Source: a bacterium
GTDB taxonomy: Bacteria > UBA8248
Reading direction: 5' to 3'
NCBI GenBank assembly: GCA_965203325.1
Contig: OZ241875.1
Coordinates: 2,880,001 to 2,944,000 of the forward strand
DNA length: 64,000 nucleotides
Shown: in pieces, positions 4,216 to 6,415 of the stretch
Numbering within the stretch: position 1 is the stretch's first letter
How the letters are laid out: the number at the start of each line of letters is the position of its first letter
Program-made: the position numbers and the translations under genes
The notes under the pieces: model-generated
What the model was told of the DNA's origin: nothing
What the model saw: only the letters and a program-made list of their open reading frames with translations
Databases searched by the model: none

Positions 4216-4653
4216 ATGCCGAAAGTCGATCATCTGGGCTACGCCGTGAGCAATCTCGATGAGAAGAAAAACGTGATGGAGGATTTGCTGGGCTTCCAGT
4301 TTCTGGAGAGAAGGGTGTATGAGCGGCCCGGCAACACCGCTCGCCTCGATTTCTACGAGGCCGAAGACGCGGTGATGGAACTCGTGGAGATGAGCGACCC
4401 CGAGGCACCGCTCAACCGGTTCATCGCCTCACGCGGCGAGGGACTGCACCATATCTGTTTCGTCGTCGATGACCTGAGGGCCACGATGGCCGAATGGGAG
4501 GCGAAGGGAGTCGAGTTCGTCCTCGCCCCCACCTACGGCTCGCGCGGCGGGGTCATCACCTTCACGAACGCGGCGACCACGGGCGGCCTCGCGGTGGAAC
4601 TGGTGCAGTACGTCCCCGAAGGAGAGGAGGTTCCTGACTGGGCGCAGAAGTAA
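4216..4653 (+). CDS. VOC-family protein, methylmalonyl-CoA epimerase-like
   Basis: DHLGYAV...ELVE...GEGLHHICFVVDD...GGLAVELVQ metal-binding pattern; GGAG upstream. Confidence 0.82.
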   Translation: MPKVDHLGYAVSNLDEKKNVMEDLLGFQFLERRVYERPGNTARLDFYEAEDAVMELVEMSDPEAPLNRFIASRGEGLHHICFVVDDLRATMAEWEAKGVEFVLAPTYGSRGGVITFTNAATTGGLAVELVQYVPEGEEVPDWAQK

Positions 4654-4838
4654 GGAAGCGCCATTCGCATAACCCGCACCACGCGCCCGGCTTGCCTGCA
4701 AGTAGAGAAAAGACGTGCTCGCGGTGCGGGTATGCGGCCTGCCGGGGGAGAAGGGATTATATGTACCTTCTTATACTTTGGATGACGCGGGGTTGATGAA
4801 AGAATTCGCCAAGTCCGAACGAAAGCCTCATTTTTCGC

Positions 4839-4867
4839 TTGACAAGCAAGGTCCAATCCCCCACTAT
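4839..4867 (+). promoter_or_regulatory. Putative sigma70 promoter of the candidate ncRNA
   Basis: TTGACA (4839-4844), 17-nt spacer, CACTAT (4862-4867); predicted start near G4875, the first base of the 16-bp helix. Confidence 0.5.
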
Positions 4868-4874
4868 TTCACCC

Positions 4875-5391
4875 GGCATACAATCCACGTGTGGTCGATC
4901 TCACGGGCTGCCCGCTGAATACAAGACGACTCTTCCTGAGAGTTGAAATAGGCGGGAACCCACATTTCTTCCAAAACGTGGATTGTATGCCAACCAGCCC
5001 GTATTTCATCCGTGGGTTCGGGTGAATCAATCCGCGTGTGGATTGGGAAGGATTGTATGGGTCGAGCTAGTTCATGATGAACATACCTATCTAAACCATA
5101 TAAAGGCGGCTTTTTCAGGAAACTGATGACAGGGATGCACTATAGCGAAAAATGACTGGTTGGTCAAATAGGGAAGCCGGTTGCCGCGTCGTAGGTGAAG
5201 AAGCGGTGCCGGTTTCTAGCGGCGGCCGGAAAGGGCGATGGGGCGGGTTTCAAAAGCGCCTCCGGAGCTCAGGCAAGAAGATGAAGAATTTGGGGGTTAC
5301 TCATTAGCTGCTTGACCTCGTGGAGTAGCGAGTACCGTTCCGGGTTCGAGTTGGGTCCTCAGACCCGCAACGGGAATAATGAGTAACCCCC
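4875..5391 (+). ncRNA. Candidate large structured non-coding RNA (~520 nt), class unassigned
   Basis: No ORF of 60 aa or more within 4919-5378 in any frame; perfect helices 4875-4890/4976-4991 and 5292-5306/5377-5391; 8-bp pseudoknot-type pairings; GAAA tetraloop hairpin; pyrimidine tail. Confidence 0.65.
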
Positions 5392-5631
5392 TCCTTCTTT
5401 CATCGATGCGTACTCGAAAGCAGATTCCAATACGAGCGACTTTCGCGCCGGCTCCCCGGGTCGGGGGCGAGCATCCCCATTATAGTCTCATCTTGTCGCC
5501 GATTGCGAGTTTTTTCCCGAACGCGGGTTTCGCTCCTCGGCGCCGGCCGCTTCCGGGGTACACGGCGAGGGGCCTGTTTTCGGTTTTCGTGCGGCCCGCC
5601 GAGGGGGGAGGGCTGCATTCCGAGAGGGTGC

Positions 5632-5706: not shown

Positions 5707-5952
5707 ATGGAAAATGGATTGAACGATGAATTTGAATACTATTTGGAAAACCAGCTCGATCTCACCGAGAAGTATGAAGGCAGATATATCGTAATCAAAA
5801 ATCGCAATGTGATCGGAGACTACGATACCAAGAGAGCTGCAATCGAAATGACGATGAAAATGCATATGTTGGGCACTTTTCTGGTGCAGAAATGTAGCAG
5901 TGACCCCAACAGCATAAAAAAAAGGTTTCTGTCGCGGGCCTATTTTTCGTAA
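5707..5952 (+). CDS. Small DUF5678-like protein
   Basis: EFEYYLENQLDLTEKYEGRYIVIKNRNVIGDYD pattern; its stop overlaps the next ATG (TAATG). Confidence 0.7.
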   Translation: MENGLNDEFEYYLENQLDLTEKYEGRYIVIKNRNVIGDYDTKRAAIEMTMKMHMLGTFLVQKCSSDPNSIKKRFLSRAYFS

Positions 5953-6415
5953 TGTTCAAAAAGAAAAGTTCTGCTTTCACGACATATTGCCGAGGATATG
6001 AAAACGTCCTTTCCAATCTGGTCGAGGTCGCGCCTGCTTATGACCCCGAGTTAGGTTTCTCCAGGTCTTTTTCAGGAAATACAGAGCGGTTTCGGATACA
6101 GGCGCCACGCACAGCGCGATAACGTCGCAAGTGGTTCGGGATTTCGCCTTGCGAGCTACTGGCATGGCCGTCGTTTATGACGCCACCACTACGCAAAATG
6201 TCCATACGTATTCAGTCAATATCTTATTACCCAACCATGTTGAGTTTTCCGATTGGGAAGTGACCGAGGCGGGTGGACTTGTTGGCGATGAAGACATCCT
6301 GATTGGTATGGATATTATCGGGGCCGGTGATTTCGCGGTTAGCAATAAAGAACGAACGGTATTCACCTTTCGCTATCCTTCACAAGAAGAGATCAGTTTT
6401 TCCAAGCAAGGCTAA
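5952..6415 (+). pseudogene. Retropepsin-like (clan AA) aspartic protease, split by a -1 frameshift
   Basis: The ATG 5952 frame stops at 6120-6122; the -1 frame carries DTGATHSAIT (6095) and ILIGMDII; T5 run at 6068-6072 is a likely site. Confidence 0.75.

Follow-up and report, generated by a model that had tools for sequence, protein, structure and literature searches.

Several classes of riboswitches, including SAM-II, preQ1-II/III, fluoride, ZTP and c-di-GMP-II (cyclic di-GMP, c-di-GMP), carry a pseudoknot that is closed by the 3' tail of the RNA and shared with the expression platform. Here we describe an element of similar design from a bacterium of GTDB lineage UBA8248. The window, i.e. 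the whole stretch of DNA analysed, comprises 64,000 nucleotides (nt), from 2,880,001 to 2,944,000 on the forward strand of contig OZ241875.1 (GenBank assembly GCA_965203325.1), and coordinates are those of the window unless noted otherwise. We read positions 4875–5002 of its plus strand as a pseudoknotted riboswitch-like RNA domain of ∼ 130 nt, an apparent orphan copy of a family of leaders, and consider this reading, taken as a whole, somewhat probable.

The predicted family shares with the tail-pseudoknot riboswitches a start adjacent to the promoter, variable helices arranged around invariant junctions, and a 3' tail that pairs into a loop or junction and can also pair downstream, just before an open reading frame (ORF); in both cases there are several copies per genome, some of them in tandem. 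It differs from them in having no Rfam match, in the unusual length of its first helix, P1 (14–17 base pairs, bp, across the family), in being followed by genes for exported proteins of mostly unassigned function and, in the window copy, by the lack of an adjoining ORF. On this analysis, riboswitches of this tail-pseudoknot design are the closest described kind, the examples named above having been compared through the Rfam scan.

Two other systems offer partial parallels. Genomes with c-di-GMP riboswitches typically have many of them, placed ahead of genes for surface, secreted and adhesion proteins and polysaccharides. The family resembles these riboswitches (GEMM-I, RF01051, and c-di-GMP-II, RF01786) in the type of regulon and the copy number only, whereas its fold and conserved nucleotides are different. 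The genome that contains the window has no match to c-di-GMP-II; it has none to GEMM-I either, but the GEMM-I control was silent in every control genome, so that this negative is uninformative. The other parallel is provided by small RNAs that are derived from, or controlled by, riboswitches, such as SreA/SreB and Rli55/EutX of Listeria and Enterococcus, whose aptamer class and ligand are established. As in the window copy, an aptamer-like domain follows its own promoter and no ORF comes after it; unlike in those systems, where the ligand is known, any action of the window copy in trans is a matter of conjecture.

A preliminary description of this locus, made from the sequence alone, had pointed out a 16-bp helix whose loop is complementary in three places to the sequence just downstream. 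All of these complements are indeed present. The repeat search recovered the perfect 16-nt arms (4875–4890 and 4976–4991) and two perfect 8-mer complements, ACGGGCTG (4903–4910) with CAGCCCGT (4995–5002) and GAACCCAC (4956–4963) with GTGGGTTC (5012–5019). The 6-mer complement TGAAAT/ATTTCA (4944–4949/5003–5008) is seen directly in the letters, as are the nested stems CCCGC/GCGGG (4911–4915/4952–4956) and GACTCT/AGAGTT (4928–4933/4939–4944), and the three downstream partners all lie immediately 3' of the long helix, at 4995–5019. The search also revealed a further 8-mer complement, TTCACCCG (4868–4875) with CGGGTGAA (5019–5026). Thus, the 159 nt from 4868 to 5026 contain four perfect inverted repeats of at least 8 bp, a number that none of 2000 dinucleotide-preserving shuffles reached (mean 0.149; a share of 0.0005 had three or more). 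Isolated 8-mers are common in the surroundings, with nine pairs of exactly 8 nt in a wider region of 1151 nt, so that a single one means little by itself. The nested fold of 4875–5003 has a minimum free energy of -55.1 kcal/mol, compared with -32.2 ± 4.0 kcal/mol for shuffled sequences (z = -5.72). The complementarities in the window sequence are real and non-random.

Comparison of multiple copies of the element identified those pairings that are conserved. Three alignments were used: 12 diverse copies (A2), from which the covariance model R1 was built, 15 orthologs of the window copy (A3), and 74 members aligned with R1 (A4), 73 of them distinct. According to these alignments, the fold is a long helix P1 that encloses a P3–P4 arm with the near-invariant unpaired segments GAAUACAAGAC, GAAAUAG and AACCCAC, plus a single pseudoknot, P2. 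In the window copy, the P1 5' arm GGCATACAATCCACGT (4875–4890) is a perfect 16-bp complement of the 3' arm ACGTGGATTGTATGCC (4976–4991), which was recovered by both the repeat search and covariation. It is followed by a linker, L1 (4891–4902), whose sequence and length vary across the family, and by the P2 5' strand ACGGGCTG, a pseudoknot strand located within the P1 loop. The two strands of P3, CCCGC and GCGGG, covary with each other and flank the junction GAATACAAGAC (4917–4927), which is unpaired in the model, invariant in A2 and near-invariant in A4, the P4 hairpin GACTCT-TCCTG-AGAGTT (4928–4944), whose length and sequence vary across the family, and the junction GAAATAG (4945–4951), of which AATAG is conserved in both A2 and A4. 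The segment AACCCAC (4957–4963), for which we found no conserved Watson–Crick partner, is near-invariant across the types and probably belongs to the functional core. The P2 3' strand CAGCCCGT starts 3 nt after P1 and closes the pseudoknot.

The helices of this predicted fold show extensive covariation. In A2, 93.7% of the cells in P1, P2, P3 and P4 are paired and 19 of the 35 pairs have changes on both sides, a level of covariation that none of 500 shuffles reached. Among the 73 distinct members, changes on both sides were seen in all 16 pairs of P1, three of the eight pairs of P2, all five of P3 and all six of P4. Overall, 88.5% of the cells are paired in this set, compared with 73.0% when the 3' letters are shuffled and 33–41% when the partners are slid by one to three columns; the values for individual helices include 93.3% for P3, 90.6% for P4 and 87.2% for P2. 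The covariance model behind the alignment does not include P2, which therefore had no influence on how the sequences were aligned, and two P2 pairs switch freely (CG in 32 members, UA in 25, UG in nine and AU in one at the first; CG in 28, UG in 20 and UA in eight at the second). The order of the strands (P1 5' arm, P2 5' strand, P1 3' arm, P2 3' strand) means that P2 crosses P1 and is therefore a true pseudoknot. G–U pairs occur often (one P1 pair is UG in 24 cells), which indicates an RNA transcribed from the plus strand only. Of the suggestions in the preliminary description, the long helix, the nested stems and the pairing 4903–4910/4995–5002 are thus upheld by covariation, whereas a fold with multiple pseudoknots is not, the other two pairings being broken in orthologs (see below). 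With respect to the fold and to membership in the family alone, we regard the conclusions as highly probable.

The element has no counterpart in the sources searched. Rfam 15 at the gathering threshold yielded only a tRNA elsewhere in the window; with E-values up to 10 no match overlapped positions 4875–5026, and with E-values up to 1 there was none in nine paralog loci. A full-text search of the literature on riboswitches and noncoding RNA of Nitrospinota, and on eukaryotic-like proteins of symbionts, returned no description of this RNA. Searches with blastn and nhmmer of the 4.39-Mb genome from which the window derives did reveal paralogs. The full-length ones have wholly different P1 sequences and the same core, CGGGCUG-CCCGC-UGAAUACAAGAC-[hairpin]-GAAUAGGCGGGAACCCAC ... 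P1 3' arm ... CAGCCCG. A search with the junction GAATACAAGAC in one genome per species retrieved 19 stretches, which came from metagenome-assembled genomes of Nitrospinota or Nitrospinaceae or from records titled 'bacterium', and the same pattern retrieved four more from the JGI metagenome collection. The R1 model matched 24 of the 51 Nitrospinota genomes searched, with up to 15 matches per genome; within the window's genus, 20 of the 22 other genomes gave a match, as did one genome from a second genus of its family and two from a different family of the class. The window copy scored 134 bits (E = 1.7e-27), a value that is partly high by construction, as this copy is among the 12 source sequences of R1. 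It possesses the long P1, P2, the P3–P4 arm with GAAUACAAGAC, (G)AAUAG and AACCCAC (4911–4963) and a predicted promoter. Judged by these sequence searches, the element belongs to a multicopy RNA family, without an Rfam or literature match, from a clade of uncultured Nitrospinota for which metagenomes are the sole source.

In addition to the full-length paralogs, the same genome carries at least eight copies of a truncated variant. At the edge of a repeated unit of ∼ 1.3 kb there are truncated copies without the P1 5' arm, for example at G000:C1:1263785–1263870 (L117:5786–5871) and in at least seven other places. An HTH_17 gene of divergent orientation begins ∼ 415 nt from these copies, which are on its upstream side, and it is followed by genes for cadherin-like, fn3 and Calx-beta surface proteins. 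A mobile-element interpretation of this multicopy variant was considered and rejected, the repeated unit having no transposase.

Members of the family are typically preceded by a predicted promoter. The motif TTGAC is found at positions -48 to -32 from the model start, mostly at -34 or -35, in 47 of the 71 distinct upstream regions, compared with 0.9% of random genome positions, and all 47 of these regions also have nAnnnT at a spacing of 16–19 nt. In the window copy, the predicted sigma-70-type promoter (4839–4867, plus strand) consists of TTGACA (4839–4844), a 17-nt spacer and CACTAT (4862–4867) and is conserved in orthologs. A simple promoter scan passed over it, CACTAT having only three of six matches. 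The transcript is predicted to start at ∼ 4874–4875, at the first base of P1.

The P2 3' strand is followed, in most members, by an ORF that starts 19–62 nt further on. Signal-peptide-like N-termini, as scored by a crude heuristic, are encoded by 24 of the 38 distinct nearby ORFs, compared with 289 of the 3131 control ORFs of the genome, and many of these ORFs have a lipobox followed by a run of glycines. Among 42 downstream proteins, Pfam searches identified Sel1, Ank, fn3, OMP_b-brl, CsgG, GH113, Bac_transf, Glyco_transf_25, TbpB_B_D (TbpB-like lobes), DUF4875 and SNase, and 20 of the 42 had no Pfam family at all. Several genes are headed by two to four tandem RNA units. At one such locus (L073; G020:C1, ∼ 4431664–4433418), three tandem units are followed by a gene for a phage-type integrase (Arm-DNA-bind_3 and Phage_integrase), the place of which is taken by a lipoprotein gene at the orthologous position in other genomes.

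In nearly all members, the CCCG(G) of the P2 3' strand can also be taken up into a hairpin with the sequence that comes immediately afterwards, and a run of U then follows in some of them. The mean duplex energy between the P2 3' strand (plus 3 nt) and the next 40 nt was -11.9 kcal/mol in 71 members, compared with -10.3 ± 0.23 kcal/mol for permuted partners and -9.7 ± 0.29 kcal/mol for shuffled sequence, and none of 200 runs of either control reached the real value. This permutation test was used in place of a weaker count based on RNAfold, in which at least five of the eight P2 3' bases were paired downstream in 58 of the 73 members. The suggestion of mutually exclusive conformers in the preliminary description thus gains support at the level of the family, where the P2 3' strand shows excess complementarity to the next 40 nt. 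In the mechanism that we propose, a small ligand or a protein factor would bind in a pocket made up of the conserved junctions and the pseudoknot, and occupancy of this pocket would stabilize P2 and block the downstream hairpin. Without P2, its 3' strand would in most members be free to pair downstream, forming a hairpin 20–60 nt before the start codon of a gene for an exported or surface protein. The competing hairpin might act as a terminator in some members and, in others, as a structure close to the ribosome-binding site, and the choice between the two folds would then set read-through of transcription or translation. For such riboswitch-like switching we see the chances as about evenly balanced.

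The preliminary description had proposed that two or three loop–tail pairings form, and a rival of the single-pseudoknot fold would be that all three do so in this copy, perhaps as an elaboration particular to its lineage. In the genome of the window, each of the three complements is indeed perfect and, as shown above, the number of 8-mers is well above chance. Each paralog type has its own tail beyond P2, so that only orthologs could inform on the other two pairings, and in these they are lost without compensation. For AACCCAC/GTGGGTT (4957–4963/5012–5018), 67.3% of the cells are paired in the 15 orthologs, and six of the seven pairs vary solely through uncompensated breaks on the 3' side, the 5' side being invariant in 14 of the 15. 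The nearest relative, which is 98% identical over 1.1 kb, reads GTCGGTTC, a single change that breaks the 8-mer 4956–4963/5012–5019. The central A–U pair of GAAAT/ATTTC (4945–4949/5003–5007) is kept in three of the 15 orthologs, and homologs thus retain the 16-bp helix without two of the three pairings. The mean identity to 14 orthologs is 96.0% for the RNA core (4875–5002) and 78.7% for the tail (5003–5112), with 80.3% at the third codon positions of the adjoining VOC-family gene; the core is therefore strongly constrained and the two extra partners, which evolve at about the third-position rate, are not. By this comparison, the two extra complements are features of this one genome, outside the conserved fold, and the triple pairing appears highly improbable.

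Some further pairings were considered. The additional 8-mer complement corresponds to an outer helix (4868–4874/5020–5026) that has, by eye, all seven pairs in five of the 15 orthologs and one to three mismatches in the others; its 5' strand lies upstream of the predicted transcription start, and the helix was left out of the fold. The P1 5' arm could alternatively pair with a second GGATTGTATG (4877–4886/5050–5059), which becomes GGATCGTATG in four of the 15 orthologs, giving an A–C mismatch with no compensating change in P1, and this candidate is not supported as a conserved switch. Pairing of GUGG in L1 with the CCAC of AACCCAC was rejected: it is paired in 42.1% of the cells of the alignment, no better than slid controls. 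A permutation test of this pairing looked positive (-5.03 compared with -4.38 ± 0.18 kcal/mol), and in the B-type copies the GUGG bases can extend P1 instead.

Other interpretations concern the nature of the element rather than its pairing. The preliminary description had listed ribozymes and self-assembling RNAs next to riboswitches, and a self-cleaving ribozyme or an RNA nanostructure would share the general features seen here, namely the presence of a pseudoknot, of unpaired nucleotides that do not vary and of more than one copy per genome. The Rfam scans described above, which covered ribozymes and large multimeric RNAs, gave no match, and the ∼ 130-nt motif begins at a predicted promoter, as a 5' leader would, and lies directly before ORFs with apparent expression platforms. 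These options seem very improbable, and what stands from that list is the riboswitch-like architecture, with its covarying pseudoknot and shared 3' strand. The perfect 16-bp inverted repeats, the multiple copies, the truncated copies at the edge of the 1.3-kb unit and the integrase gene downstream of the tandem array in one relative (L073) could instead point to an element that acts as DNA, such as a recombination site, a transposon end or a miniature inverted-repeat element. Against this, the helix sequences differ completely among copies and still pair, many of the G–U pairs would be A–C on the other strand, the window copy is syntenic in all orthologous loci, and the 1.3-kb unit is a paralogous segment of a gene cluster (HTH_17 and cadherin-like surface genes). 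A function at the DNA level is, in our opinion, barely credible.

A further interpretation is that of a protein-binding leader with a decoy, comparable to CsrB/RsmZ and CsrA, in which the junctions would bind a dedicated regulator or antiterminator of ∼ 15 surface-protein mRNAs and the orphan copy would titrate it. It is consistent with the coherent set of downstream genes, which code for exported and envelope proteins and do not form a metabolic pathway, with the tandem arrays of units, and with the properties of the window copy, which combines a strong predicted promoter and the highest conservation of all copies with the lack of a nearby ORF. Variable helices around invariant junctions and a pseudoknot with the 3' tail are, however, equally typical of small-molecule aptamers, and we consider the decoy model possible though rather doubtful.

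Returning to the riboswitch-like leader family, several observations weigh against it, or at least against parts of it. Both ends of the transcript, like the transcript itself, are predictions from the sequence. Within the 15 orthologs of the window copy, the helices are invariant and the covariation comes entirely from paralogs; the members share ancestry, and counts from shuffles and permutations therefore credit them with more independence than they have. With respect to switching, the mean number of P2 3' bases paired downstream in RNAfold predictions is 5.7 of eight, only weakly different from 4.8 of eight in shuffled sequences, and the orthologs of the window copy have no conserved hairpin that would compete for this strand. 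The downstream genes are not the transporters or biosynthetic enzymes that would hint at a metabolite, and the single GGDEF match in the genome makes the analogy with c-di-GMP weak. Finally, what marks most members as leaders is the ORF ∼ 20–160 nt downstream, which codes for an exported or envelope protein, whereas the window copy is followed by no ORF for ∼ 700 nt.

If the favoured reading is true, the family would constitute a class of regulatory RNAs with well over 100 members, located before genes for envelope, adhesion-type and eukaryote-like proteins. Such proteins are thought to mediate the contact between symbionts and their hosts, and the RNA would provide a handle on the switching of surfaces by these uncultured bacteria, with the orphan aptamer on offer for in vitro screening for a ligand or protein partner. 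A bolder version would see here a new class of riboswitches or riboregulators through which uncultured Nitrospinota coordinate their surface and secreted proteome, including ankyrin, Sel1 and fibronectin-type 'eukaryote-like' proteins, in response to one intracellular or host-derived signal, with the orphan copy as a trans-acting arm that either buffers the ligand or protein for ∼ 15 cis leaders or gates a sense/antisense pair with the promoter at 5139–5167 (see below). Taken jointly, these propositions are unlikely.

The window copy is the top-scoring type in 16 genomes and the most conserved member of the family. It is located ∼ 220 nt after a VOC-family gene (4216–4653), which was found upstream in all 35 loci recovered. 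The P2 3' strand is followed by a 3' extension (5003–5112, plus strand) that is common to the orthologs of the window copy and holds both of the unsupported pairing partners. It includes a small hairpin, CAATCC/GGATTG (5028–5045), which is conserved without compensatory support, and the second GGATTGTATG (5050–5059), which repeats the P1 3' arm and likewise has no compensatory support. About 135 nt after P2, a predicted convergent sigma-70-like promoter on the minus strand (5139–5167; TTGACC, 17 nt, TATAGT; 10 of 12 matches in the promoter scan) points back at the RNA. The pattern TTGACN-N16-18-TAnnnT is found at this same place in all 15 orthologs, with a divergent spacer sequence. As read from the sequence, transcription from this promoter would run antisense to the 3' extension and might extend over the motif. 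The window copy is probably not a simple mRNA leader but a small RNA with a sensing function, or else the 5' part of an extended noncoding transcript, and it is possibly one half of a sense/antisense pair; both ideas are conjectural, and we hold any particular role of the orphan copy to be less likely than the switching mechanism, on the doubtful side of even.

The next plausible plus-strand ORF (5707–5952) is DUF5678-like and has, by eye, its own TGnTATAAT-like -10 element; the Pfam match is weak (E = 5.5e-4) and below the curated cut-off. Another plus-strand ORF (6131–6415), which appears retropepsin-like by eye from a DTG motif, seems to be continued from another frame starting near 5952. 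Some of the orthologous loci contain this pair of ORFs and others lack it. On the other side of the RNA, just past the stop codon of the VOC-family gene, there is a 22-nt imperfect inverted repeat (4672–4731; 82% complementary, 16-nt loop) that has no U-run on either strand, so that its role as a terminator is uncertain.

A second structured element is located further downstream (5284–5399, plus strand), where an invariant closing stem of 14–15 bp, GGGGGTTACTCATT/AATGAGTAACCCCC, surrounds ∼ 70 nt. It has no Rfam match with E-values up to 10, and compensatory changes were seen in five of its 31 predicted pairs among 16 copies. One to three copies of this element lie downstream of the RNA in 17 of the 23 genomes of the genus, and the window's own genome has a paralog at 4032338–4032446.

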